64,000 bases of DNA from Candidatus Bathyarchaeia archaeon (GCA_049513715.1 JBEKVV010000001.1:608001-672000); one strand, 5' to 3'; counted from the first letter of the stretch, positions 7,037-33,508 are shown. Made by a program: numbers and translations. The notes: generated from the letters alone by a model not told the origin.

Positions 7037-8383
7037 TCATAGAGGGTCTCCGCGGGGATTTGTGGCAGGTGTGCCGCAATTCATGCAAATGAGGTCTGTC
7101 CATGGGAATTCTGCGCCGCAATACTGGCACTTATTTCTAATCTCATTTCTGGATTGAGCTGGAGAGAGGGCAATGAATCCATCCAATTCCTGAGGCTCAA
7201 ACATTGACACGTCTGTCGCGATGCGAAACTGCGAATAACCAATTGCCCCTGCATACAGGTCATAGACACCGGGAGCAACGTCTAGAGAATAGCGGCCCTT
7301 ATCTCTGGAGGACAAATAGCAAGCGGACATGACCTTTCTGCCGGTTGACTGATGCGTTGAAGGGACCGCCGCGGTACCGCTTGCTATGACAACCGCCGGC
7401 AGGGTCAGCGGATTGCCTTTCGATAGATACAATGTCCCTGACAGACTCCAAGTCACATATTCCCCCTTGACCGCGATAGGGTGAAAATCAAATTGGGATG
7501 CTGGGGGGGTCGCCCCGACGACTGATATCTCATCGCTGCCGTAGAACCGGTAGGTTCCTGCTATTTTGGGAGCGACCACGTCCGAAAGCCTGAAACTGAA
7601 CCATCCCCCTTTCAATGAAGACTGAGCCTCGGGGAATCTGAGTGTGGTCTTCACAACCCAGAATCTTGGGTAGTTCGGATCGTTCTCTGGGTTCACTGTA
7701 ACCATTATGTCGCCTGCAGAAACCAGCAAATCCGTATGGATCTCTTCAGCGGGATTGTTCGCCGCCGCTGTCAAGTCAAAGTCCCGCGGAATGTAGACGG
7801 TTATGACCTCGTCTCCGTGAAGAACCTGATGAGGCCTAACCGCCACCAGCACTCTAACTTTGTTCTGGTGGTCGTCCGTAGATGTCAGAACCTCTGTTCC
7901 TTCAATCGGATACCGTGAGTCTTGATGAGCGCGGTAACCCCAAGGTTGAGGTGAAATCGCAACGACCCCATACGTTTGAAGGGCGGCCTCGGCTGTGAAT
8001 TCTGCTGCAATTTCAGCAAGCAACTTCCGCAACTCAACAGTATTTGATTTGGAAAACCTATGGTACTTACAAACCAGAGGAAGAATTCCCTTGACTTTAG
8101 AGACCGCTTCCTCAACCAGGCCATAGATCGGCTTTCTATCTCCAAACGCCATGTAAGCCATACCGAGCTCGTTCTGAATCCAATCGCTCTCATCTGAAGT
8201 AATCACTGCCAAGAACCCGTTAGATGCCTGTATCCTGTTCACTATGACAGGGAGCGGGGGGGTCTTGGAAATCTCTTGGGCAATAATGCACTCGATCCCA
8301 TGAACGCTCAACTCGCTTCTGATGACCTCCACCAACAATTCATCCCCCTTGGCGAAGCTTATCGAAAGAAACAGTTTGCCCAG
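7037..8383 (-). CDS. TIR-like domain fused to beta-sandwich/carboxypeptidase-regulatory-like domain and double Zn ribbon
   Basis: Frame extends to a CTG at 8383, adding KLFLSISF; FLAVIT..SDWIQNELGMA; DVAPGVYDLYAGAIGY; CQYC..CMNC. Confidence 0.7.
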   Translation of the reverse strand: MGKLFLSISFAKGDELLVEVIRSELSVHGIECIIAQEISKTPPLPVIVNRIQASNGFLAVITSDESDWIQNELGMAYMAFGDRKPIYGLVEEAVSKVKGILPLVCKYHRFSKSNTVELRKLLAEIAAEFTAEAALQTYGVVAISPQPWGYRAHQDSRYPIEGTEVLTSTDDHQNKVRVLVAVRPHQVLHGDEVITVYIPRDFDLTAAANNPAEEIHTDLLVSAGDIMVTVNPENDPNYPRFWVVKTTLRFPEAQSSLKGGWFSFRLSDVVAPKIAGTYRFYGSDEISVVGATPPASQFDFHPIAVKGEYVTWSLSGTLYLSKGNPLTLPAVVIASGTAAVPSTHQSTGRKVMSACYLSSRDKGRYSLDVAPGVYDLYAGAIGYSQFRIATDVSMFEPQELDGFIALSPAQSRNEIRNKCQYCGAEFPWTDLICMNCGTPATNPRGDPL

Positions 8384-8735
8384 AATTCAGCACCTGTCCG
8401 CCTCGGATTAGAGCATATTACCGCATAAGGGCGTTTGGGGGAACTCGAAGTTCACAGGTCGAGAGTGAGTTAAGAGTTTGGAGTATCTGGATTATCGCAG
8501 GAAAAGGTTGAGCCAGGCCGTGGGTTTTCGATGCCGATTGCCATTATATTATCTATGTCAATGGTTTCCATCGCGAGTTTTCTTTTCCCTGGCGTGTTCC
8601 CCAGCTCAGCAGAACAAGCAGGATGTCATCTCTGGAACGACCGTCGAGTATTTGTGACAGACCAAGTGTCTTGGCGGCTTCAAGATTGAGCAGGTCTATC
8701 CACTTTCTCGGGTCATTCCCAGCTCCAGCTTTCTC

Positions 8736-8770
8736 GAATGTGTGCGCACCACTAAGGGCACACACAAATG
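8736..8770 (+). repeat. degenerate TIR|TSD|TIR junction copy
   Basis: gaatgtgtg|CGCACCACTAaggg|cacacacaaat. Confidence 0.7.
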
Positions 8771-9056
8771 ACCGCGGCAGGGATTCGAGAGATTGGTGAA
8801 AAGTTCTGGTTTGGACATGTTGGAAAAGAATCGAGTTCAGGCATTAACGTGAGCCGCATCATCGCGTGTGCACAATTACGTTCACAACCGAAAACTCCAC
8901 AAGGCAAGACAAGTCCTACTATGGACCGCAGGATAACGCGAATGGGTGTGAGCCACAATAGAACGATCTAAGAATTACCACCGGCCATCGCCAGAGTTTG
9001 ATCTTCTACGAGAGGGCGCTCGTGCATTTAGTCGATGCGACCCGGACAAAGTCGAA

Positions 9057-10091
9057 TTGCTGATTCAGTCGTGCTATGAGAATTTCTTGGAGCTCAATCT
9101 TCAACACCCTCGGCTATTCGCCAAAGCAAAAGAAGATCACCTTGATTCCCAGAGTCTCCTGAAACGAGTGCTGGTGATTGCAATTCCACCAAAAACCGAA
9201 ACCAAGTGGGGCCAGAAGATTCTCTGCCTATTTATGTCATTTCAATATGCGGTTGAGGCAGTCATCGTCGCGCACCTCGAAATGAGGAAAGCCTGGCAGA
9301 AGTCTCTCTCTCGAAAGCATTTTTGGGAGATTGTTGATGATTACCGCAGGCGACTGCTGGACCTTTTCGGAGAGGTTGGGTTTGATCGTTCCGACGTCCA
9401 TTTTTTCATTAAGGGAGACGAGGTTGTGTGGCCCGTTAATGTCTCTGAGGTAGAAGCTCTCGACTATGTCGACGCGAATCTGCAGGCTGGCTTATGGGCA
9501 AAACTCAATGACGTTTTTGGCCTTTTTACCGTTCAGGCCTATGAGGCGGCGGAGATTGTTCGAAATAAAGGCGCCTTGTTTAAGGCATTATTCGATGGAA
9601 TACCGACTCGGTTCTTTGCTTCAAGGAGAAGTGTCAAGAAAAGCACTAGCGTGCGCACTGAAGAACGCAATAAACTACCAAAAATCGGACTCGTTCTCGG
9701 TCGAATCACTACAACAAGTTATGTCAAAGACGTTCCAAGTAGTTGGAGCGTCCCATTCACATTCAGAAATCACGATAAAGATGTGTTAGGAAGAGTGAGC
9801 AAGTCCAAGATATCTGTCGTTGTCCGACCCTATGTTTCAGGAATCATTCCCGAACGACACGGATTCGGCCCTGGCGAACTCGACGACTTTCTCATTCCAC
9901 CAGGTCGCACGGTCGTTGGTGTAGCAAATATCGGCATTCAGCCTTTGTTTGCGAGAAACAATTGGGAGGACGAGTATAGTCAAGCTTTCAATACAGGTGA
10001 TCTCAAAATCAAACTGCAAATCAGTTACGTAATAAGTGACGAGTTTGGTAGGATCAAGAAAGCTAGAGAGCGTAGACTTCGCGTTTCTTAG
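9057..10091 (+). CDS. hypothetical protein
   Basis: 344-aa ORF, no recognised motif. Confidence 0.6.
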   Translation: MLIQSCYENFLELNLQHPRLFAKAKEDHLDSQSLLKRVLVIAIPPKTETKWGQKILCLFMSFQYAVEAVIVAHLEMRKAWQKSLSRKHFWEIVDDYRRRLLDLFGEVGFDRSDVHFFIKGDEVVWPVNVSEVEALDYVDANLQAGLWAKLNDVFGLFTVQAYEAAEIVRNKGALFKALFDGIPTRFFASRRSVKKSTSVRTEERNKLPKIGLVLGRITTTSYVKDVPSSWSVPFTFRNHDKDVLGRVSKSKISVVVRPYVSGIIPERHGFGPGELDDFLIPPGRTVVGVANIGIQPLFARNNWEDEYSQAFNTGDLKIKLQISYVISDEFGRIKKARERRLRVS

Positions 10092-10099
10092 TCACTGGT

Positions 10100-10717
10100 T
10101 CAAATACCTAAGTATCTCCGAACAAAATCTATGATGACCTCAGCTGCTGGCGGACCTAACCTTGTCGCCATTTCCTTCACCCTGTTCAAACGACTAGGTC
10201 TGAGAAGATCCTTACCTTTCTCCTTCTCAAGGAGACGGAGCTCTTCTTTGATGGTGGCAGTTTGGTCTTTTGAAACAATTCTATCCAAATAGTCTTCGAG
10301 GTCTTTCAGCGAATTTACGGTGGTCGTTTGGTTCTGAGTTATGATTCCTCCAGAAGCTATCTGCCCACCGCTCACAGGTCCATTGACATTAATGATGTTA
10401 AAGTTAACAGCGAGATTCCCGCGTGCACGTCCCTCAACCGCCTCAATCCCGAAACTTGTTAAGCCAAGTAGGTGCGACCATTTCTTCGTCGTTCCAATTG
10501 ATCCTGTGGACTGACCCTTTACTAGATTTGAATCGATTAAATATTCGATGTTGAACTCTGCTAGTTCTTCGCTTATGGCAAGAAGTTTAGCGTATTCTGA
10601 AGGTTTTGTAAGAATCTCAGCTCCCAGCTGTTTCTTGTTGTACAATTCCTCAAGAATCTTGGCTCTGATGTCCTGATTGCTCAGACCTGACAAAGCCCTT
10701 ATGCACTGGCCGTCCAT
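10100..10717 (-). CDS. hypothetical protein with N-terminal winged helix
   Basis: IRAKILEELY...FNIEYLIDSNLV...LTSFGIEAVE wHTH pattern. Confidence 0.65.
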   Translation of the reverse strand: MDGQCIRALSGLSNQDIRAKILEELYNKKQLGAEILTKPSEYAKLLAISEELAEFNIEYLIDSNLVKGQSTGSIGTTKKWSHLLGLTSFGIEAVEGRARGNLAVNFNIINVNGPVSGGQIASGGIITQNQTTTVNSLKDLEDYLDRIVSKDQTATIKEELRLLEKEKGKDLLRPSRLNRVKEMATRLGPPAAEVIIDFVRRYLGI

Positions 10718-10835
10718 CCTACGAGCTCAGATTTGAACCGCTTGGTGTGTTATTGTGCGCACCACGATACCCACACACACAAATCAAAGCCTGAACGACC
10801 GTTGAAATTCCGTCCCCCGAGCGATGCCTCGACTT

Positions 10836-11112
10836 CTATTTCGTCAAGCCACCCTGCTTCCGGAGTCTCTCCACCAGTTCCCGGTATCGGGGGTCAGCCC
10901 TTGCCTTAGCGAAGAGAGGCGCGTGCATCACGGTTGAGGCAATTATCGTATGGGCTTCGAGCGCCTTGTTCATGTACTCGAAGTAGGAGTCGAGGTCTCC
11001 GAGGGCGTGGTAGACGTACGCAATGAAGTTGAAGCCGATCGGACCTATGTTGGCGGTCTCGATCTTCTTGATTGCGAGGAGCGCCCGTTCCCTGTCGCCT
11101 TCCAGAGCCGCG
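10836..11112 (-). pseudogene. C-terminal fragment of a TPR protein (adenylate/guanylate cyclase-TPR type tail)
   Basis: ALGDLDSYFEYMNKALE...PLFAKARADPRYRELV; visibly higher GC than flanks; no native start. Confidence 0.7.
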
Positions 11113-11280
11113 TTCAGCAAAATTAACCTCGCGAGCGCTTCCCATCAAGAAACGACTCAGTTCAGTCGCCTTCAGTTCGATAATAGTATCCCACTTCCAC
11201 CTGCGGCCCTTGTAGTTTACGCCTGAATTGAAGTGTTGACGGAGAAGATTGATGAACCGTTGCTTGCCTTCCGCTTCGAG
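11113..11280 (-). pseudogene. cas1: casposase-type Cas1 C-terminal remnant (56 codons, mostly outside the ORF track)
   Basis: LEAEGKQRFINLLRQHFNSGVNYKGRRWKWDTIIELKATELSRFLMGSAREVNFAE resembles the FN..V.Y.G...W..II..K..EL..YL.G....DF pattern of archaeal solo/casposon Cas1. Confidence 0.7.
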
Positions 11281-11423
11281 AGATTCGCTAGACTACTTTC
11301 AAGGTCACATATTCAACCGTAGAGAGGCCTGGTAGGTGAGGCAGGCACGTTGACCCTCGCCTGCGAGATATATTCTGTATATTGGCAACCATTAAACCGA
11401 CTTGACGATTTGTACTCGGTTCT

Positions 11424-11624
11424 ATGAGCCACCATTGTAAATTGTGTCACCCACCTAAGATATTTCGATCAATCGACCGACTGCATGAACATCATTGGAC
11501 GACTCATCGACGATGGTGCTGCAATGTTTGTCATCATTTGAGTCGACTTCACTCAGGATTCCATGGCTGTGCAGTCTGTGGTTGCCGATACTCGAAGAAG
11601 CAGCAAGAGCGCCTTCGTGACTAG
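11424..11624 (+). CDS. small C2H2/Cys-His-rich zinc-finger protein
   Basis: CKLC..F...L..H....H followed by CNVC.H and CAVC. Confidence 0.6.
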   Translation: MSHHCKLCHPPKIFRSIDRLHEHHWTTHRRWCCNVCHHLSRLHSGFHGCAVCGCRYSKKQQERLRD

Positions 11625-11696
11625 AACTCCTTCAGGGCGTCGGAAGTTGCTTATTCGAGTGTGAGTGCTATGTTGTATCTGAGAGGTGACTAATGT

Positions 11697-11813
11697 ATGG
11701 CAAAGCAAAGTAGGGGAGCTAAGAAAGCGTGGACGGCTGCTAGAGATAAGAAGGTGACGAAAGCACGCGAGAAGAAGAAAGAACGCAAAGCCGCCCTTTC
11801 CACGTATCAATAG
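11697..11813 (+). CDS. 38-aa highly basic micro-protein
   Basis: GAGGTGA RBS upstream; MAKQSRGAKKAWTAARDKKVTKAREKKKERKAALSTYQ*. Confidence 0.45.
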   Translation: MAKQSRGAKKAWTAARDKKVTKAREKKKERKAALSTYQ

Positions 11814-11919
11814 GAACGCGCTGTTCTGACTTGAACCGTTTTTTCCGTTTCGGCAGACTCATTCTGAAAATGATGTGAATAACGGGTAACAGATCAAGAA
11901 GGGTAACGTAGCGGGACGC

Positions 11920-12009
11920 TTGTGAGGAGTATCACTGGTGCGAGCATCGCAATTTGAACTACCAATTTTGTGTGTGTGGGTATAGTGGTGCGGGCAACAG
12001 AATTTGAAC
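11920..12009 (-). repeat. two tandem ~50-bp tRNA-3'-end mimic + TSD + TIR-start units
   Basis: Minus strand GTTCAAATTCTGTTGCCCGCACCACTATACC-CACACACACAAAA, then GTTCAAATTGCGATGCTCGCACCAGTGATAC. Confidence 0.75.
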
Positions 12010-12115
12010 CATCGTCGTTCAGGCGTTATTTTGTGTGTGTGCGCACCACTAGACCCGCCCTATCGGAAAAATACGAGTGAACAGTTGGGGTTTGGTGCTG
12101 TTTGTGGCTGAGTGG

Positions 12116-12147
12116 TTTGTGTAGTAGTGTTTAGTGGCGCGCGCAAC
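12116..12147 (-). repeat. additional degenerate target+TIR copy
   Basis: 24/32 ungapped identity to 11967-11998. Confidence 0.6.
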
Positions 12148-12192
12148 TCCACTAGACGCAGCTGCATTTAGTCAATCTTTGGCAAAGTGAAA

Positions 12193-13719
12193 CTAGAGCT
12201 TTCGTTTGCGTGACTGGTTTGGAACGAAGCAAGCGATCAAGGCCACTGAATCTATGGCTGTGGCGATAGGAATCCACATCACAACTATGCTAGGATAGCT
12301 GGTTATCGGTGATTCGAACCCCATTCTTAGGGGTAATAGGATCAACGCCCCAACGATCAAGAAATAGGAGCAGACCAACGCCGCCAGCAGCCTCAGCCCG
12401 AGCACATCAGTCGGCCTTCCGATAATGAAAACCATCAAAGTGAGGATAGCACCGATGAGCAAAGGCGTTAGAGAGAGCATCCAAGCATTCACAGAATGCG
12501 GAAAAATCGAAGCCCACGGCACTATAGGAAGGTGAAGACTGAGACTTCTGAGAAGAAAGCCAAGGTCGCTGAAATAGCCATACACTACAAAATAGGAAAG
12601 CCCAGCAAAGCCCAACACTCCGAAACAAAACCGGTCGCGGCGTCTGACCAGTGTCCTCATGAAGTGGGCAACAAAGAATAACGAGCCGAAGGTAGCGAAA
12701 ATTGCAGGGGCAATTGCTATGAACGGAAACAAGACAAGCACGGCAGCAGACCAAATCGAGAAGAACGCAATGCCAGCTTTGCCAAAGATACATGTCTGAA
12801 ACTGAAGCCAATTCGCTTGTACAACGATTGCCACACGAATAACAGCAGCAACCGAAGAGGAGAGAGGAAGGAGTTGCTTGAGGACCACCTTAACTATTCT
12901 AGCGAACGTTTCAGAGCTGTTTGGCGCAGTGTCGTTTCTCACCTTCCAGGACTCCGCTTCGTAGATGATAGCGGGAGCAATTGCGGCGAAGAATAGAAAT
13001 TCTACATAAGCAACGTAGGGGGTAAGAACAGATGGCGTGCTCGGCTGACAGGCCAATATGCTCGCAGGCCAGATGCTGTAGTATATTCCTGTCAACATCA
13101 CGAGCCCATAAAGCAAGCCGTAATTTACAAAGACATGAATTAACTCCGTCCTATTGTTCGCCTCCCAGAAAAATGAGACCGATGGGAGTCTAATCTTCTT
13201 CCAAGCTCCATAGACTCGCACCCTGAGTCCATTCATCCGTTCATAGACTCTTACCAAGAGTCCATTCGTCAACGGGACAATTGCTATCAAAAAGATACCC
13301 AAAGCGGCGCCAAAAAGGAGTCCCTGCGCGGCATCGTTTAGGATTCCGTTTGCCAGCGATACAGTCGGTGGATAATCCCAGACAGAAATGCCCTGGATGC
13401 CGAGAAGGATTTCTTCTTTGGCTAGCGCGATCCAGTACACACCAACGAGACCACCGAAGAAAAGGAATCCTGAAGAAATCCACAGCGCTGTTCGTGCTGC
13501 AAATCGACCGATTTTTCCGATTCGTCGTGAGCGATACAAAAGTAGAAGTGGCATTTCAGGGACCAACGGAAGAGTCATCAGAGGTACGACCAGTACTGGA
13601 GGGAAGCCGAAATTGAACAACGAGAAAGAATAAGCGAATGGTGCGATTACGAACGCGAGATAAAGAACCAGGGAGACAGCGTAAAGCCAAAATTCACTGA
13701 GACGAAGCTGAATCCTCAT
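12193..13719 (-). CDS. hypothetical polytopic membrane protein
   Basis: 508 aa, more than 10 hydrophobic segments. Confidence 0.7.
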   Translation of the reverse strand: MRIQLRLSEFWLYAVSLVLYLAFVIAPFAYSFSLFNFGFPPVLVVPLMTLPLVPEMPLLLLYRSRRIGKIGRFAARTALWISSGFLFFGGLVGVYWIALAKEEILLGIQGISVWDYPPTVSLANGILNDAAQGLLFGAALGIFLIAIVPLTNGLLVRVYERMNGLRVRVYGAWKKIRLPSVSFFWEANNRTELIHVFVNYGLLYGLVMLTGIYYSIWPASILACQPSTPSVLTPYVAYVEFLFFAAIAPAIIYEAESWKVRNDTAPNSSETFARIVKVVLKQLLPLSSSVAAVIRVAIVVQANWLQFQTCIFGKAGIAFFSIWSAAVLVLFPFIAIAPAIFATFGSLFFVAHFMRTLVRRRDRFCFGVLGFAGLSYFVVYGYFSDLGFLLRSLSLHLPIVPWASIFPHSVNAWMLSLTPLLIGAILTLMVFIIGRPTDVLGLRLLAALVCSYFLIVGALILLPLRMGFESPITSYPSIVVMWIPIATAIDSVALIACFVPNQSRKRKL

Positions 13720-14172: not shown

Positions 14173-14423
14173 CACCCACCCTCCCGGAAGGCCAATCCCT
14201 CGCATCCAAGGACGATGTAAGCAACACGCGCTTCCATGACATTATTGAAATGCTTGCGGAGCACTTATGAGAACGCAGACTAGGACCGGCCACGTTTTTC
14301 CATCTGATGGCAAAATGCCCCTCTGATGGTTCTCACTTTTCACGAGATTTAGACAGTATTCGCCGCTCATGCGGAAATCGTAAAAGACTGTCAGTTATAG
14401 AATCACAATCGCAAGCGGCGGAC

Positions 14424-15944
14424 ATGGGAAGGATTATCGGCCCATCGCGAGCGGTCATACTACTGTTCTTTCTGTTCGTCTTTATAGTGAACTCTTCCAA
14501 TTATCCGAAGGCAAAGGGGCAGTCGTCTTACAACCTGTCGATCACCGCTCAGACGTCTAGCACCGAGATGGGGTCCGCAGTTGACTTGAATGGGCAATTA
14601 ACTCCCTTGCCCCCTGTGCCCACCAATGTCTGCGTCCCGGCCTGCGTGAGGCTCCAATTGCAGGAGATGAACCTAGATTCACAAATCTGGAATGACCTCG
14701 AACAATACACTGAGATTTGTGGACCCGGCGTTACTGGTACAGGTTGTCAAGACTTCCATAGCGATGGAAGCTTTCGAATAGTCTGGACTCCGGATATGGC
14801 TGGCAAATTCATGGTAAGAACCAAGCTTGTTTCTTGGACCCTTGTTTGCAACGGTGGACAGATTTGCACATCGCAGCGGAACGTGCTGGCGACAAGCAAC
14901 GACCTGGGGTGGTTCGAAGTGCAACCAAGGTCTTTCGTCGGCATCCCAATCTACTCCAACTCGGAATGGAACATGGCCGTCGGGTTTGGTTGGGTTGGCC
15001 TATTCTTCGGTTCCATCGGTGTGCTGCTCTGGGCCGTAAGTAGACGACAAAATCCTTTTCGAAAAGAAACCGGTCCGAGCATGCGTGTTACGGCTAAACT
15101 CAAAAGCACTGACGATAGCCCGGACGATTTAGTTGGTGGTCTAACTGAAGTCAAGAAAGCTCTTGCTGAAGCAATTGAGCTGCCGCTAATGCGGCCAGAT
15201 CTCTTTGAGAGGTACCGTGTGGTGCCCCCTACCAAAGGACTGCTTCTGTACGGTCCACCCGGCTGCGGCAAGACACTTCTTGCAAAATCTATCGCGGCTA
15301 AAGGAAAGATAGCGTTCGTCTATTGTCGCTCCACAGACATATTCACGAAATACTACAGTGAAAGCGCCACGCGCGTAAGGGAGTTGTTTGAAAACGCACG
15401 GAAGAAGGCCCCGTGCGTGCTGTTCTTCGACGAGATTGATGCTCTCGTTCCAACTAGAGGCTATTCAGACGACGCGACAGCGCGAGAAGACGTCAGAGTA
15501 ACTAGCGAATTCCTCGCGCAGATGGATGGTCTTACTCCACTTGAGCGCGTGATCGTGATTGCTGCAACGAACCGTCCTGATGCCATAGACCCAGCCCTTA
15601 TGAGGCCAGGAAGATTCGATAGGATATTATACGTTCCACCTCCCGATTTGGAGGCACGCACTGCCATCTTGCGAAATAGTATGCATGGTGTACCGAAAAA
15701 TGATGACGTGAATCTCAATGAGATTGCCCGAAGTACTGATGGCTACTCTGGAGCGGACCTCGTAGCTCTTTGCCGCGAGGCCAAGATGCGCGCGATGAAA
15801 GCAGAAGTTGAAGGCTCACCGCGCCCTGTCATGCCAAGAGATTTCGCAGATGCTCTGACTGTTGTGAAACCTAGCATCTCGCAAGCAATGCTTGAGAAAT
15901 TTGAAGCTTTTGTGAACTCGTTTAGAAGGTACAGAGAGAGCTAG
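14424..15944 (+). CDS. membrane-anchored AAA+ ATPase (Cdc48-like domain) with Cys-rich predicted ectodomain
   Basis: Signal/TM helix, Cys-rich beta region, second TM, GPPGCGKT, LFFDEID, ATNRPDAIDPALMRPGRFD. Confidence 0.85.
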   Translation: MGRIIGPSRAVILLFFLFVFIVNSSNYPKAKGQSSYNLSITAQTSSTEMGSAVDLNGQLTPLPPVPTNVCVPACVRLQLQEMNLDSQIWNDLEQYTEICGPGVTGTGCQDFHSDGSFRIVWTPDMAGKFMVRTKLVSWTLVCNGGQICTSQRNVLATSNDLGWFEVQPRSFVGIPIYSNSEWNMAVGFGWVGLFFGSIGVLLWAVSRRQNPFRKETGPSMRVTAKLKSTDDSPDDLVGGLTEVKKALAEAIELPLMRPDLFERYRVVPPTKGLLLYGPPGCGKTLLAKSIAAKGKIAFVYCRSTDIFTKYYSESATRVRELFENARKKAPCVLFFDEIDALVPTRGYSDDATAREDVRVTSEFLAQMDGLTPLERVIVIAATNRPDAIDPALMRPGRFDRILYVPPPDLEARTAILRNSMHGVPKNDDVNLNEIARSTDGYSGADLVALCREAKMRAMKAEVEGSPRPVMPRDFADALTVVKPSISQAMLEKFEAFVNSFRRYRES

Positions 15945-16118: not shown

Positions 16119-16400
16119 TCAGTCTCCTTTTCCGCGACTAACGCTCTTTGCCCTCTCCGCTTCTTGCACGCAATTCCACCCCAATTCCTGTATTCGGGCG
16201 GTATGGGGATTCTCATTTTTCATGATGTTCAGAAGTGGTTGCGTTGCGGAGATCAAAGCGCTCTCCACCTGGTCAACATCACCGTCATAGGAAACAAAGC
16301 TTACTTCCAAGTTCTTGTCCGTGCTTGATTCTAGTGTTGATGCGTTCTTGTGGTTCAATGCCGTGACTGTCAAGGTTGCTAAAACGATTCCTGCAAACAA
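16119..16400 (-). CDS. hypothetical small protein
   Basis: 93-aa ORF with hydrophobic N-terminus. Confidence 0.35.
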   Translation of the reverse strand: MFAGIVLATLTVTALNHKNASTLESSTDKNLEVSFVSYDGDVDQVESALISATQPLLNIMKNENPHTARIQELGWNCVQEAERAKSVSRGKGD

Positions 16401-16428
16401 GGTGGCGAATGTCTCAGAACGTTACGTT

Positions 16429-17352
16429 TCATGTTAGGCCGATGGAATTGCAGAGACTTTCTCTGTAAATAGACTCTGTGAGCTGCTGACATCGATGAAG
16501 GAACTCGTTTTCGTCGGTTGGTTTGTTCCCTCCGTGGAATATTTGATTTCTCACCACGAATAGACAAAGGCCAACCAATCTTAATGTGGACCTGACGTCC
16601 GACTTTCTCGCAAGATCGTTTAGCTCATCACTGTAGTTCTTCTGGCCGTGCCAGTCTGTCAATCCCCGCGAACCAGTTCTTTGACAGTTTGGTCGTAGAC
16701 TCTAAGGATTTCCTTAATCGGTGCTCGGATGTGCGTTGATGAGATTCCCAATTGCAGTCAAATCGCCCTTCTTTTGTGGATCGAAAATGCCATAAAACGA
16801 GTTGAACGCAATCCACTGCATCACGAAACTGTCAACGGCATTGTCCGCATCTCTTGCTTTCCTAAACCATCCTATACTTCTCTCAATCATGGGACCCTCT
16901 TTATGCGCTTGCAGTTTCTTCATGAACCTGGCTAATGCCTCAAAGTTTGCGATTGGAAGTAACAGGCGAATCGAGAACGACGAAAATGGACTTTATGAAG
17001 CTAGAATTCTCCGAACTTCCTTTTCCGTAAGATTACCTTCCTCGATTGTTCGGTCGGGCAGAAAGTAAGAGAGCCTTTTCGGGTCCAAGCAACGCCCTTC
17101 ATAAAGAGCATAATGAATCGTGTTTCTATGTTTGATAGCGTAATCTTGTGCTCTCGTGACTTCTGTTGTCCCTGCCGCTACCATAGCATCCTTGCCGGTG
17201 GCTTGGGTTCTCGCAAGCTTCAGATACAATCTATCGACAAGCGCCATCATCTCGTGCATTTTTTGTTTGGCTTCTGGATCGCCGGTGTCCACCCATCGTG
17301 TCAACTCCAGCGATTCATTTGGCGTGTTTTTGAATGCCACAATTACGGGCAC
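16429..17352 (-). pseudogene. disrupted HEPN (ApeA/MauJ-like) protein
   Basis: Three same-frame ORF pieces; WFRKA..DSFVMQWIAFNSFY and RNQIFHG; TAA at 16993-16995 and compensating frameshifts at ~16670-16716. Confidence 0.75.
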
Positions 17353-26452: not shown

Positions 26453-26800
26453 TTGAGAATTCCCGTAAAAAAGGCAATTCTCTCTCGCATGAACATACTT
26501 GAAGTCGAGGCCGGGACGAACGGTTATCATGGCGGAGATTCTGGTGGGGGTAGCCGAACCTACTTAGCTTTGAGAGACCGCGGTGCGACGACATGGCGGC
26601 TCAGGGTGAGAGACCGGTGTGGAAAGGACTGGATTTTCGAGCAGCCGGTCTCAGTTGAGATTACCGTGGGTGGCGACAGCGAACTTGACACTTTTCTCGA
26701 CGCCTTGAAGTTCTCCGCTCAAGCCCTAACAGATTTACTACGCCTTGAACACGCCGACAAGCCCACGCATGACGTATTCCACGACGTCGAGGTGGAGTAG
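26453..26800 (+). CDS. hypothetical MGE protein
   Basis: AGTNGYHGGDSGGGSRTY...GGDSELDTFLDALKF; abuts the prim-pol gene. Confidence 0.65.
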   Translation: MRIPVKKAILSRMNILEVEAGTNGYHGGDSGGGSRTYLALRDRGATTWRLRVRDRCGKDWIFEQPVSVEITVGGDSELDTFLDALKFSAQALTDLLRLEHADKPTHDVFHDVEVE

Positions 26801-26804
26801 TGGA

Positions 26805-29093
26805 TTGTCGAGTATGTTGCGCCTTGGGATGGCTGCGCTGCGCAAAGCGCTGAACCTATGGGCATACGACGACTACGTACAATTCTACGTTGATAACGAT
26901 TTTTGCATAATACCGATTATCCCCGAAACCAAGAAGCCGAACCTGAACGAATGGAAAGAGTTCCAGCAACGAAAGCCGAGTCCCGACGAAATTCAAGAAT
27001 GGTTCGGTGCGAAAGAGAGCCAACGCCGACCGAGCATTGCCGTAATTGCAGGTCGCATTTCAGATAACTTAGTGATAATTGACTTCGACGAACTGGAATG
27101 GTATTCAAAATTCTTTGCAGCGCCGTTCTTGACCACCGCTGAGATCGAAAGCACCACGTTAGTCGACAAGACAAGCCGTGGCGTGCACGTTTTCCTTCGC
27201 TCATACGTGCCAATGAAAAGCTACAACATTCCAGAACTGCACGTGAATGTGCAAAGCGAAGGCCGTTATGCGCTCGTGCCGCCAAGCATTCACCCGTCCG
27301 GTGCGCAGTACACATTTCTGACAGAACCAAGAGCACCCCGCCTAATCGAAAACCTGCCAGACGTTTTGAAGAACCGCATAGAAGGCATGAATTTCCAAGT
27401 GCCAGCGGTCTTAGACCCTATTGCTGAAGGCAACGTTCAGGTTCACGTTCGCCCTTGGCGACGTTTCCCGCCGCAAGTACAAGCGTACTTCGTTGACACG
27501 GAGATTGGAGATCGCCACCATAGGGCGGTCGGCATTGCTTCCACAATGCTGAACGAATGGAAATTCCCGCTAGAAATGGCAAGACAATGGTTGTATGAAT
27601 GGAACGACCTTGTGTTGAAGCGACCAATTCCCGTCGCCGATATTGACCACGCATTACACGAAGCACAAGCGAAAGGCTACGTGTACGGCAAACAAACCAT
27701 TCAACCGGCAGCACTGACCGACGACGAACAAAAGGCCAGCGAAGCCCTAGCGAAAGACCCAGCACTGTTATTCAAAGTGAAAACTGCACTTGGCGGCCTA
27801 GTGGGCGAAGACAACAACCGCTTGCTGCTATTCGTACTGAACCTTGCCAAGCAAAGCGTCGAAATTTCGGGGCAAAGCGCAGGCGGCAAAAGAACATTGG
27901 TCGACGAAGTGCTGCGGGGCTTCCCTGACGACTCATATCAGAAAGTAACGGGCGTCACTGACAAGGCGCTGCGCTATCTTGCTGAAAGCATTCGCACGCT
28001 TTACATTGCTGAACGTGGTGCGCTCGAATCACACGGCGAAGAAACAACTGCGGCGTTCGACGCCAAGATGGTCATTTCAGAAGGCAAACTAAGCATTCTC
28101 GTGCCAGAGAAAGACGAAGAAACAGGCAAAATAAAGTCGACCACGATTGAGACCAAGATCGAGAACATTATTTCCACTAGCACGCAACTGTCGCTGCCTG
28201 AAGAACTAGAAAATCGACTGTGGCGCACGAGCATTGACGACAGCGAAGGCCAGAACGCTAAGGTTCGTGATTACCTACTTGATTCGGCGGCGCAGGCCAA
28301 CGACGACAAGCCTGATTTTGCCCCGCAGAAACAGCAAGTACAAAGTCTCGTCAAACTGATTGAGGTTGAAGCACCGAAGGCCGTTATTGTTCCTTTCGCA
28401 CCGGCTCTGAAGTCGCTGTTACCGAGCGACAAAACACGGGTACGACGAGACACTACGAAGTTGCTTGCCCTGGTGCGATACATTGCTATTCTTCACTACA
28501 AGCAACGCCCAAGTTTCACAGGCAAGAAAGGCATTGTGCATGTCGTTGCCCTTCCCGCCGACCTTTACGCTGCGCTAAGAATTGGTTATGCGGCGTTCGT
28601 TGAAACTCGAACCGGTTTCAATGCCTCAATTCGTCGTGGTTACGAGATAGCAAAGACGCTTTCAGAAATTACCACGGAAGCCGTTCAAAATGCTGGGGGC
28701 GTTAGCGACCGCACTGCCATACGGTACGTCAAGGCACTCAGGAAGCAAGGCATTCTTATTGAATCTGAGAAACGGGGACGAATCCCAATTTATACATTGG
28801 CGCCAAATGCGGCGAAACTTGTCGTCGTCGAAAAGGCGGACGTTCTGGGCCGTTTTGATTGGAAGGAGCTTGAATTAGCCTGCGAAATGGTCGCCGCCAC
28901 GGGGTCCGTAAAATCGCCGGTCATCGACCCGTTGACTGGCGACCTCGTGGACCTGATTGGCGGCGATCATAATTCCAAGGCTGAAACGGCGGACAATCAA
29001 GAAACAACCCAAGAAATGCACTCAGAAATGGCCGCCAAGCCACTTGACGACTTTTCGGCGTTGGCGGCGACGAACACGAGCATTGGGAAGTAG
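26805..29093 (+). CDS. bifunctional primase-polymerase fused to AAA+ helicase-like domain and wHTH (start uncertain; ORF open from 26745)
   Basis: IIPI..TKKP..WKEFQ, IIDFD, TSRGVHVF, ALVPPSIHPSG; GQSAGGK, LYIAE, ELENR, RVRRD. Confidence 0.88.
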   Translation: MSSMLRLGMAALRKALNLWAYDDYVQFYVDNDFCIIPIIPETKKPNLNEWKEFQQRKPSPDEIQEWFGAKESQRRPSIAVIAGRISDNLVIIDFDELEWYSKFFAAPFLTTAEIESTTLVDKTSRGVHVFLRSYVPMKSYNIPELHVNVQSEGRYALVPPSIHPSGAQYTFLTEPRAPRLIENLPDVLKNRIEGMNFQVPAVLDPIAEGNVQVHVRPWRRFPPQVQAYFVDTEIGDRHHRAVGIASTMLNEWKFPLEMARQWLYEWNDLVLKRPIPVADIDHALHEAQAKGYVYGKQTIQPAALTDDEQKASEALAKDPALLFKVKTALGGLVGEDNNRLLLFVLNLAKQSVEISGQSAGGKRTLVDEVLRGFPDDSYQKVTGVTDKALRYLAESIRTLYIAERGALESHGEETTAAFDAKMVISEGKLSILVPEKDEETGKIKSTTIETKIENIISTSTQLSLPEELENRLWRTSIDDSEGQNAKVRDYLLDSAAQANDDKPDFAPQKQQVQSLVKLIEVEAPKAVIVPFAPALKSLLPSDKTRVRRDTTKLLALVRYIAILHYKQRPSFTGKKGIVHVVALPADLYAALRIGYAAFVETRTGFNASIRRGYEIAKTLSEITTEAVQNAGGVSDRTAIRYVKALRKQGILIESEKRGRIPIYTLAPNAAKLVVVEKADVLGRFDWKELELACEMVAATGSVKSPVIDPLTGDLVDLIGGDHNSKAETADNQETTQEMHSEMAAKPLDDFSALAATNTSIGK

Positions 29094-32233: not shown

Positions 32234-33508
32234 ATGCGGGGGGCAATTCTTGCAGCTGGTGAGGGCTCCCGAATGTGGCCCTTGGCTGAAAGCAAACCGA
32301 AGCACTTACTGCCCGTGGGCGGAAGGCCAATTCTTTCGCACATTCTTGAAGCGCTCAAGCAGAATTCAATCCGCGAAGTCTACATGGTCGTTGGATACCG
32401 AGCTGAAGACATTCGAACCGCATTTGGCGACGGAGCCAAACACGGCCTGCATATCGAATATTTGGACCAACCAAAATGGACTGGAACCGCCTCTGCCATG
32501 AAGGTTGCGTACAACGCCGTTGGACGGGAACCCTTTCTGGCTATCTATGGCGATTTGTGGGTTAACTCTTCAGCTGTGCAAGCGGTTATTGAAGAAGCTG
32601 ACAACTGCCCGAGAGTCATGGGTGTTGCCCAAGTTTCGAACCCAACAGAATTTGGCGTCGTTGAGCTCGCTGGAGACAGGCTGGCAAGAATCAATGAGAA
32701 ACCTACAGGAAAAATGCTAACGGAAGGTTGGGTCAATACCGGCATCTACGTTTTGGACGGAGAAGTCTTCAACGCGATCGACAAGACCGCGGCCTCGAAA
32801 AGGGCAGAGTATGAACTTACTACGTCCCTCCAACACCTGCTTGACGAAGGCAAGGAAATCCGAAGCGCCATTGTTGACCGCGAGGATTGGATGGATGTTG
32901 GACGACCTTGGGATTTGCTGGAAGCGAATGAGCGCTCTCTCGAAAACCTCTCACACCGAGTGAAGGGCGCGGTTGAGCAGGGCGCAGTCTTGAAAGGCCC
33001 AGTGTGGCTTGAAGAAGACTCTGTCGTGAAATCAGGCTCGTACCTAGAGGGGCCTGTCTACGTTGGTAGAGGTAGTAGAATTGGGCCCAACGCCAGAATT
33101 CGTCCTTCGACAGCAATTGGGGACGGAGTCACTATCGGAACTTCATGCGAGATCAAGAACTCGGTTGTGATGAACGGAACTAGGATTCCACACCTTTCCT
33201 ACGTTGGTGACAGCGTCATTGGGGAAGACTGCAACCTGGGCGCGGGAACGATAACTGCAAACATTCGTTTCGACGAAAGACCACTGAGGATGAAGGTCAA
33301 AGGTCGCATGCAGGAGACAGGAAGGCGAAAGATAGGAACCATTATGGGTGATAGGGTTCAGACGGGCATCAACACGAGCATACTGCCCGGCGTGCGAATA
33401 GGGTCCGATTCTTGGATTGGCCCCGGCCTCGTATTAACCAAGGATGTTCCATCAAAGCGAACGGTCTTAACAAAACAGGTAACGACGATTAGGCCACGCA
33501 GGCACTGA
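32234..33508 (+). CDS. glmU: bifunctional sugar-1-phosphate nucleotidylyltransferase/acetyltransferase
   Basis: ILAAGEGSRM..KPK, PHLSYVGDS, hexapeptide repeats. Confidence 0.92.
   Translation: MRGAILAAGEGSRMWPLAESKPKHLLPVGGRPILSHILEALKQNSIREVYMVVGYRAEDIRTAFGDGAKHGLHIEYLDQPKWTGTASAMKVAYNAVGREPFLAIYGDLWVNSSAVQAVIEEADNCPRVMGVAQVSNPTEFGVVELAGDRLARINEKPTGKMLTEGWVNTGIYVLDGEVFNAIDKTAASKRAEYELTTSLQHLLDEGKEIRSAIVDREDWMDVGRPWDLLEANERSLENLSHRVKGAVEQGAVLKGPVWLEEDSVVKSGSYLEGPVYVGRGSRIGPNARIRPSTAIGDGVTIGTSCEIKNSVVMNGTRIPHLSYVGDSVIGEDCNLGAGTITANIRFDERPLRMKVKGRMQETGRRKIGTIMGDRVQTGINTSILPGVRIGSDSWIGPGLVLTKDVPSKRTVLTKQVTTIRPRRH

Follow-up and report, generated by a model that had tools for sequence, protein, structure and literature searches.

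A probable fossil array of casposon-type insertions at tRNA-end-like target copies in a Candidatus Bathyarchaeia archaeon

The array and its cassettes

Positions 8736-12160 of a 64,000-nucleotide stretch of DNA from a Candidatus Bathyarchaeia archaeon hold a series of short target copies that separate two cassettes, and are described here as a putative array of casposon-type (Cas1/casposase) insertions. The whole stretch, called the window below, corresponds to G000:C1:608001-672000, where G000 is the 2.79-Mb genome of this archaeon (11 contigs; 99.4% complete, 8.8% contamination). DNA homologues were sought in 40 genomes of relatives, and the junction pattern of the array in 41 genomes, including G000; loci from the relatives or from G000 bear L-numbers (e.g., L017 and L018 on G014:C3, L023 on G004:C45, L040 on G013:C3, and L025 on G000:C3). 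Casposons are rare, large transposons with their own polymerase, and they are thought to be ancestral to the adaptation machinery of CRISPR.

The target is a 14-mer of the form CGCACCA followed by seven variable bases; conservation is confined to its first seven or eight positions, which include CGCACCA, and to the final one or two (reading of 8400-12600; repeat finder). Three copies lie on the plus strand: T1 (CGCACCACTAAGGG, 8745-8758) and T2 (CGCACCACGATACC, 10758-10771), both read directly and recovered by a composite-motif scan, and T4 (CGCACCACTAGACC, 12042-12055), read directly, recovered by an 11-mer scan and followed by non-repeat sequence. Each is preceded by a sequence ending in GTG: GAATGTGTG before T1, GATTTGAACC..GTTATTGTG before T2, and a 49-nt repeat arm ending in TTTTGTGTGTGTG before T4. 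The first of these (8736-8744, plus strand; direct reading) terminates a left neighbour for which no second end was found, and there is no further junction upstream of T1 within the window. Directly 3' of T1 and T2 stands CACACAC(AC)AAAT. The three positions had been proposed in an earlier, sequence-only reading of this DNA, and direct reading together with the repeat finder bears them out; the GTG-ending and CACACAC(AC)AAAT flanks that it described were likewise read directly. Of the minus-strand copies that it placed near 11930, 11979, and 12128, the second is clear (T3, CGCACCACTATACC on the minus strand, 11979-11992; repeat finder and motif scan), the first is partial (CGCACCAGTGATAC on the minus strand, 11929-11942; direct reading), and the third is weak, an 11-mer with one mismatch at 12132-12142. 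For this last copy, a degenerate one on the plus strand (about 12145-12160) is probably the better reading; it would follow a C/A-rich terminal remnant of 89 nt that is homologous to G000:C5:180270-180392 (remnant and copy together 12056-12160, minus strand; a weak local alignment).

The bare 11-mer, with up to two mismatches, is not enriched in the window (12 matches vs 11.4 expected). The composite CGCACCA-N7-CACACA, with up to one mismatch, occurs three times against 0.11 expected, and none of 100 shuffles gave three or more; CACACACAAAT, also with up to one mismatch, has eight matches against 0.97 expected (0/100 shuffles).

Cassette E1 (8759-10757, 1999 bp; direct reading and repeat finder) lies between T1 and T2. 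Its left end is CACACACAAAT (8759-8769) and its right end a degenerate repeat arm (approximately 10716-10757) with a tRNA mimic of the GGTTCAAATC type, read on the minus strand; the two termini align poorly (26/47 columns identical). As the sequence-only reading had stated, the segment holds two unrelated hypothetical genes, namely open reading frames (ORFs) of 344 aa (9057-10091, plus strand) and 205 aa (10100-10717, minus strand), the start of the latter adjoining the right repeat arm. Neither has a Pfam, PADLOC, or NCBIfam match that would indicate the function of the cargo. The segment also contains a 67-aa ORF (8768-8971), which has no match in Pfam, the one library with which it was scanned.

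Cassette E2 (10772-12041, 1270 bp), with which E1 has T2 in common, is a decayed casposon-type element with inverted terminal repeats (repeat finder; alignment). The left repeat (10772-10834, plus strand; alignment) opens with CACACACAC and continues into a degenerate mimic of a tRNA 3' end; it is identical to the reverse complement of 11979-12041 in 46 of 66 aligned columns. The right arm is the 49-nt sequence before T4 (11993-12041, minus strand; repeat finder and alignment), in which the 30 nt on the inner side resemble a tRNA's T-arm and acceptor end, and T3 is the inner target mimic. Beyond T3 lies a 36-nt solo or nested terminal repeat (11943-11978, minus strand; direct reading and repeat finder). 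A hairpin or attC-like reading was dropped, as the two inverted 14-mers on either side of one repeat arm show no co-variation across 21 aligned copies.

Inside E2 lies a 3' fragment of a TPR-protein gene (10830-11112, minus strand; ORF 10836-11120, 94 aa), recognized from its DNA: a TPR gene for 487 aa (L018:1213-2676) is 81-85% identical to it at the 3' end, as are other copies. It is followed by a fragment of a casposase (Cas1) gene (11104-11280, minus strand; residues approximately 288-346, in an alignment that may extend to 11011), which has 68% identity to the Cas1 of L020 (tblastn, E 2.5e-19), was found again as G000:C1:619011-619280 (E 4.6e-16), and whose DNA also matches the 3' parts of Cas1 genes in relatives. 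Then comes a conserved mobile module of about 560 bp (11301-11862, plus strand), 96% identical to a sequence on G004:C8 and 90% to one on G014:C3, with a zinc-finger-like, Cys/His-rich ORF of 66 aa (11424-11624) and a basic ORF of 38 aa (11697-11813). The 182-bp core of this module (11421-11602) is multi-copy across the genus, with many matches at 79-90% identity; it is also present in G000:C4:240090-240271, and twice inside one array of G004:C8.

The array is situated within a block of about 29 kb (2300-31700), most of whose genes could not be annotated and which has rpS3Ae (1554-2186) on one side and an NTP-transferase gene (32234-33508) on the other. Among the proteins encoded there are one of PrimPol type (26745-29093) and, at 14307-15944, an AAA ATPase with matches to IetA models of PADLOC. 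The block resembles a large integrated element or a variable island, and no integrase was seen in it. To the left of the array, a 433-aa ORF (7037-8338) has a DNA paralogue of 78% identity at G000:C1:491578-492933. The stretch is present in 24 metagenome runs, and contigs from four of them show the array unchanged. These contigs lend no support to an excised form, as the listed joints, with sides of 24-33 letters, fit other copies of the repeat; they say little about excision, since rare variants are lost in contigs and the source sample may be among the runs.

Spread of the junctions and the native tRNA site

The profile scan that the sequence-only reading had suggested for the contig was run with BLAST and nhmmer over the whole genome, and the family is genome-wide. 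The 85 matches at E <=0.01, some of which are one site on both strands, are clustered, many of them near contig ends. A scan for the 14-mer plus CACACAC gave 136 candidate ends in G000, a few of them spurious, and a 26-nt junction pattern occurs 22 times, against 0 in the reversed control. This pattern is present in 24 of the 41 genomes, including 21 of the 22 other genomes of the genus and two of other genera. A casposase-like match accompanies it in 18 of these 24, vs 3 of the 17 pattern-free genomes (those three being distant); this co-occurrence is not an independent test, because the genomes are related.

Three pairs of near-identical segments with repeat junctions are situated at contig ends of G000: C1:896018-896222 with C10:20043-20247, C7:1-443 with C11:8586-9027, and C3:527584-528358 with C4:240677-241451. 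The repeat family probably breaks the assembly at these points, or the duplicates mark strain variants. The recurrent ORF families that were looked at near the repeats are all of a cargo type: surface, KaiC-like, nitroreductase, and membrane proteins. An IS200/IS605 or TnpB reading was rejected, as the TnpB copies lie elsewhere (the four strongest on contigs C6-C8, two of these at contig ends), and so was an SSV-type integrase, since PF16795 has no match in G000.

The native counterpart of the target lies at G000:C3:86166-86290 (minus strand), where a tRNA gene ends in ...CGGCCGCACCA and is followed by CTGGACC and then by CACACACAAAAT. The 14-mer equals the last seven bases of the tRNA gene plus the seven bases downstream, so that this is a site-specific target with CGCA at its 5' end and located at a tRNA 3' end, as in family 2 casposons. 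ARAGORN calls the gene tRNA Val(CAC) with an intron; from our own reading of the anticodon arm, it is probably a tRNA-Gly, with the anticodon GCC after removal of the intron. An alignment of this tRNA end with the repeat arm's inner 30 nt, together with the 14-mer and the CACACAC start that come next, has 41 identical columns of 59; the longer terminal repeats thus carry a mimic of the tRNA end plus the 14-mer. The likeness concerns the 3' part of a tRNA only: ARAGORN finds no tRNA gene in the window, and in 8000-13000 Rfam gives nothing at gathering score and two sub-threshold chance matches.

In 12 genomes with the orthologous tRNA site, a CACACAC-like start lies exactly 7 nt after the CCA in seven and is absent in five, and the tRNA is separated by about 0.1 to about 30 kb from the conserved gene downstream. 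A comparison of G018 with G021 at this site was considered as a clean insertion and rejected; it is a replacement without CACACAC ends. In G000, an 11.7-kb variable region behind the tRNA gene contains a gene for a 626-aa family B DNA polymerase (PolB; C3:77949-79829, or L025:3949-5829), homologues of which occur in many relatives, in three copies in G012, and are not adjacent to Cas1. This gene may be a remnant of a polymerase-carrying element.

Some 14-mers are preceded by a second kind of sequence, a GGGG-ATTTTGA-CCCC hairpin followed, after about 40 nt, by a GGTTCAAAT mimic (G000:C5:166950-167005, C5:168085-168115, and C5:175040-175100; L022:8530-8620). These pieces look like a tRNA without its 5' third, and may be old integrase attachment scars that were re-used as casposon targets. 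Another tRNA end, that of tRNA-Pro(TGG), may also be used as a target: at G000:C3:421836-422045, a short inverted terminal repeat and a 14-mer lie behind this gene.

Casposase genes and elements with direct duplications

G000 has no Pfam PF01867 (Cas1) match genome-wide. All that tblastn shows of casposase genes there are C-terminal fragments in five places (a second search gave six matches, also in five places), one of which is that in E2; without an intact Cas1, the array here is presumably a fossil. Pfam Cas1 matches occur in 12 of the 23 genomes of the genus, with up to 11 in one genome, where several are intact. The intact proteins of relatives have about 405 aa (404-410) and are encoded inside elements with the same junctions. 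Their match to 6OPM, the casposase of Methanosarcina mazei, spans residues 4-401 (E 4e-70) and includes the C-terminal HTH region and the motifs VEG, GFLH, and DLQEPFR, which we take to be catalytic. Neither Cas2, effector genes, nor PolB were found among the neighbouring genes of the Cas1 genes examined. Genes around the casposases of relatives encode, among others, an HNH nuclease, a TIR-domain protein, an AAA ATPase, DUF4365, and Hypoth_Ymh (L017:14401-14898 and 16396-17160; L040:1258-8344), a cargo that looks defence-related.

Thirteen Cas1-bearing loci were screened for direct 14-mers, with up to one mismatch, that enclose inverted ends; seven pairs were obtained, all of them identical at 14/14 positions. 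The element of G004:C45 (L023 8578-15736) is 7144 bp long, with (CCG)n ends identical at 20 of 24 tip positions and at 88% over about 65 bp, a perfect 14/14 direct duplication, and an intact Cas1 of 405 aa (L023:10095-11312); a mimic of the GGTTCAAAT type precedes it on its own strand. No empty site for it was found in a search of the genus. At G013:C3 (L040), two elements with CACACAC ends and varied cargo, 7995 and 8615 bp long, lie in tandem and are delimited by three 14-mers of identical sequence; one has an intact 410-aa Cas1 (an intact casposase gene of this locus is L040:11167-12399) and the other a truncated one. No PolB was found in these three Cas1 elements, whose ORFs were scanned, nor among the window ORFs scanned, which run to 54687 (five ORFs beyond 54689 were left out). 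In five relatives, the PolB matches do not adjoin Cas1, save for one conserved chromosomal gene.

Perfect flanks are also found in G000, around a 1027-bp single-gene cassette (C5:167020-168046) and a 2.8-kb composite (C4:201846-204645), each between identical 14-mers. One further cassette is present at two sites, C5:175026-175801 and C6:4217-5000; its interior is nearly identical at both, its flanking 14-mers differ, and the sequences beyond them are unrelated, as a target-derived flank predicts.

Interpretation, rival explanations, and known systems

From these data, we interpret the window, with a probability of roughly 0.7, as a fossil array of casposon-type insertions that share 14-bp tRNA-end target copies, made mostly of small cassettes without Cas1 and left behind after loss of the casposase. 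The enzyme would have inserted repeatedly into one 14-bp target, CGCACCA plus seven bases, that copies the CCA end of a tRNA and the seven bases downstream. Each insertion would duplicate the 14 bp, so that neighbouring elements, bounded by CACACAC...GTGTGTG inverted termini, would share one copy, in the order T1-E1-T2-E2-T4. With a tRNA T-arm and acceptor mimic and another 14-mer in its longer terminal repeats, an inserted element would import a new landing site, which would explain the nested repeats at 11929-12041 as well as the arrays elsewhere. It is presumed that cassettes without Cas1 were moved in trans by the casposase, that the terminal repeat offers its tRNA mimic as a target, and that the array of G000 is no longer mobile. 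The repeated integration at one target that the sequence-only reading had proposed is supported by the CGCA target at a tRNA end and by the terminal repeats that bound the cassettes. Its term "Cas1-built" largely holds for the origin, in view of the casposase fragment in E2 and of the elements of relatives with 14/14 duplications, including the tandem pair, but not for the present state of G000, which has no intact Cas1.

Several observations weigh against this interpretation. The lack of an intact Cas1 is one. In the window, the flanks of E1 differ at 5/14 positions (9/14 identical), those of E2 are imperfect (12/14 identical), and T2 and T3 are near-identical but inverted. For E1, as for the genes on either side of the array, DNA homologues are lacking in all 40 relatives, which left no empty site to look for there, and no empty-site variant of either E1 or E2 was found. 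Near-identical flanks are also inverted at C2:6130/8827 and around the Cas1 element of L022, which is unlike a simple staggered-cut insertion, and a 9-kb Cas1 element with (CCG)n ends on G014:C3 has outward-facing inverted 14-mers (L017:12066-12096, L018:1109-1136) and no direct duplication. Recombination between inverted ends or intramolecular transposition may be guessed at as the source of such flanks. In four of the seven Cas1 loci examined in detail (L017, L019, L020, and L021), no matching second end with a direct duplication was found. Among 25 adjacent pairs of ends in G000, four have at most one mismatch in the variable 7-mer, a weak enrichment over the 7.9% background. Some homology boundaries fall off the 14-mer, namely the left edges of the 11301-11862 module and of the cassette common to C5 and C6. 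In addition, the tRNA site holds insertions of other kinds, without CACACAC ends, and the autonomous elements have two types of ends, (CCG)n and CACACAC, which may or may not share one enzyme. On the left of the G014:C3 Cas1 element lies a neighbour of 5604 bp whose duplication is perfect (14/14).

Part of this evidence would also suit a transposase other than Cas1 that likewise makes a 14-bp duplication, with the casposase as cargo or as a second family at the same hot spots. Most cassettes lack Cas1, G000 combines dozens of junctions with no intact Cas1, and the cleanest Cas1 element ends in (CCG)n rather than CACACAC. However, the tandem elements of G013:C3 unite Cas1 with CACACAC ends and perfect 14-mers; when 399 ORFs within 3 kb of the repeats were clustered, none of the recurrent families looked at was transposase-like, a resolvase has no match in G000, and TnpB is found elsewhere. 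Furthermore, a 14-bp CGCA duplication at a tRNA end is, in the excerpts of the literature consulted, a published signature of casposases, and we regard this alternative as unlikely. Chance matches or a single local duplication, the latter named by the sequence-only reading as what would undo its proposal, would agree with the lack of enrichment of the 11-mer alone in the window. The composite motif is enriched, and 22 genome-wide junctions with none in the control, together with a genus-wide family with unrelated cargo, rule out a single local duplication; the chance that either accounts for the array is negligible.

Repeated integration at tRNA genes by tyrosine recombinases, which would have piled up displaced tRNA 3' fragments as attachment (att) scars, would act at a hot spot of the kind that the casposon-type interpretation also invokes. 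In its favour, the repeats resemble the 3' end of a tRNA, some 14-mers come after longer tRNA-like pieces that include a hairpin like an anticodon arm, and the tRNA site holds insertions without CACACAC ends. G000 also has tyrosine recombinases, one of which (C5:218585-219544) is no more than about 3 kb away from a repeat. Tandem islands of this type are similar to the array in their displaced tRNA-like 3' fragments, but the cassettes have inverted ends and 14-bp direct flanks instead of direct att repeats of 30-50 bp, and they contain no integrase, either in the window array or in the single-gene cassettes; no recombinase of any kind was found in 8736-12160. The flanking 14-mer differs between the C5 and C6 copies of one cassette, and only two clear PF00589 genes stand against about 100 junctions in G000. 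Att scars are, for these reasons, less probable still than a transposase other than Cas1.

The casposon-type interpretation is best compared with the family 2 casposons of M. mazei (MetMaz). Excerpts of two studies describe a 14-bp duplication that begins with CGCA, overlaps the end of a tRNA-Leu gene, and needs about 30 bp of upstream tRNA; tandem casposons that share one duplication; and solo terminal repeats adjoining CGCA, which were suggested as a step toward CRISPR arrays (PMC4779613, PMC6977970). As far as these excerpts go, the likeness extends to the CGCA target at a tRNA 3' end with upstream tRNA in it, to the sharing of one duplication by tandem elements, and to the solo terminal repeats beside CGCA. 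According to an excerpt of a further paper, all four casposon families carry PolB, and the family 2 set consists of PolB, Cas1, HNH, and HTH genes (PMC6563490). In contrast, the three scanned Cas1 elements of the Bathyarchaeia have no PolB, and each genome has dozens of junctions and many Cas1-less cassettes of 1-3 kb. Differences from what the excerpts report for MetMaz are also the CACACAC or (CCG)n ends, the terminal repeats with a tRNA-end mimic and a further 14-mer, and the bathyarchaeal host. Target logic and enzyme are common to both, and the PolB-less elements and small Cas1-less cassettes set the present ones apart. AciBoo-C1 of Aciduliprofundum boonei, as seen in excerpts of PMC6977970, PMC5137440, and PMC6614799, is similar in its site-specific insertion at a tRNA 3' end and in its logic of a leader plus a duplicated segment; it differs in targeting tRNA-Pro and in having PolB, HNH, and HTH genes, and cassette arrays are not reported for it in those excerpts.

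The sequence-only reading had likened the structure to an integron in function and to a CRISPR array with gene-sized spacers, and neither likeness was sustained. Like integrons, the array has small, mostly promoter-less-looking cassettes separated by a recurring site, with cargo that is highly variable between relatives. Unlike them, it has no IntI, no tyrosine recombinase was found in or beside it, its sites are not attC-like imperfect palindromes, its elements have inverted ends and a duplicated 14-mer, and its cassettes are of mixed orientation; an integron-like expression platform, a common promoter, or a host function was not established. As in CRISPR arrays, a short repeat would arise from a Cas1-type target duplication, and 36-49-nt inserts, here solo terminal repeats, lie between 14-mers at 11929-12055. 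However, the repeat measures 14 bp vs 24-47 bp, and the inserts are transposon ends or gene cassettes; the sole CRISPR-family Rfam match (10204-10242) lies outside the repeats and scores 21.6 bits vs a curated threshold of 39. With inverted ends of their own, the cassettes derive from transposons and are not arbitrary "spacers".

The genus as a whole has dozens of casposon-type target junctions, mostly around cargo cassettes of 1-3 kb without Cas1, and this lineage-wide system is of more interest than the worn example in the window. It is conceivable, though we would put it below even odds, that the casposase of the genus runs a cassette system, in which CACACAC cassettes lacking Cas1 and PolB are moved in trans into the tRNA-end-like 14-mer and copies of the landing site in the terminal repeats make the arrays self-extending. 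Our literature search, which covered its sources in part, gave no description of natural Cas1-less or PolB-less casposon cassettes; "mini-casposon" denotes a laboratory construct there. If the cassette-system reading is true, it would be a Cas1-based counterpart of the integron, and its runs of 14-mers, spaced by solo terminal repeats of 36-49 nt, would show the proposed step from casposons to CRISPR in a living lineage. If the casposase does work in trans, Cas1 enzymes would be general vectors of gene cassettes, tRNA-mimicking terminal repeats would offer a simple route to array building, and the proposed casposon-to-CRISPR transition would become directly testable through the short solo-repeat arrays.

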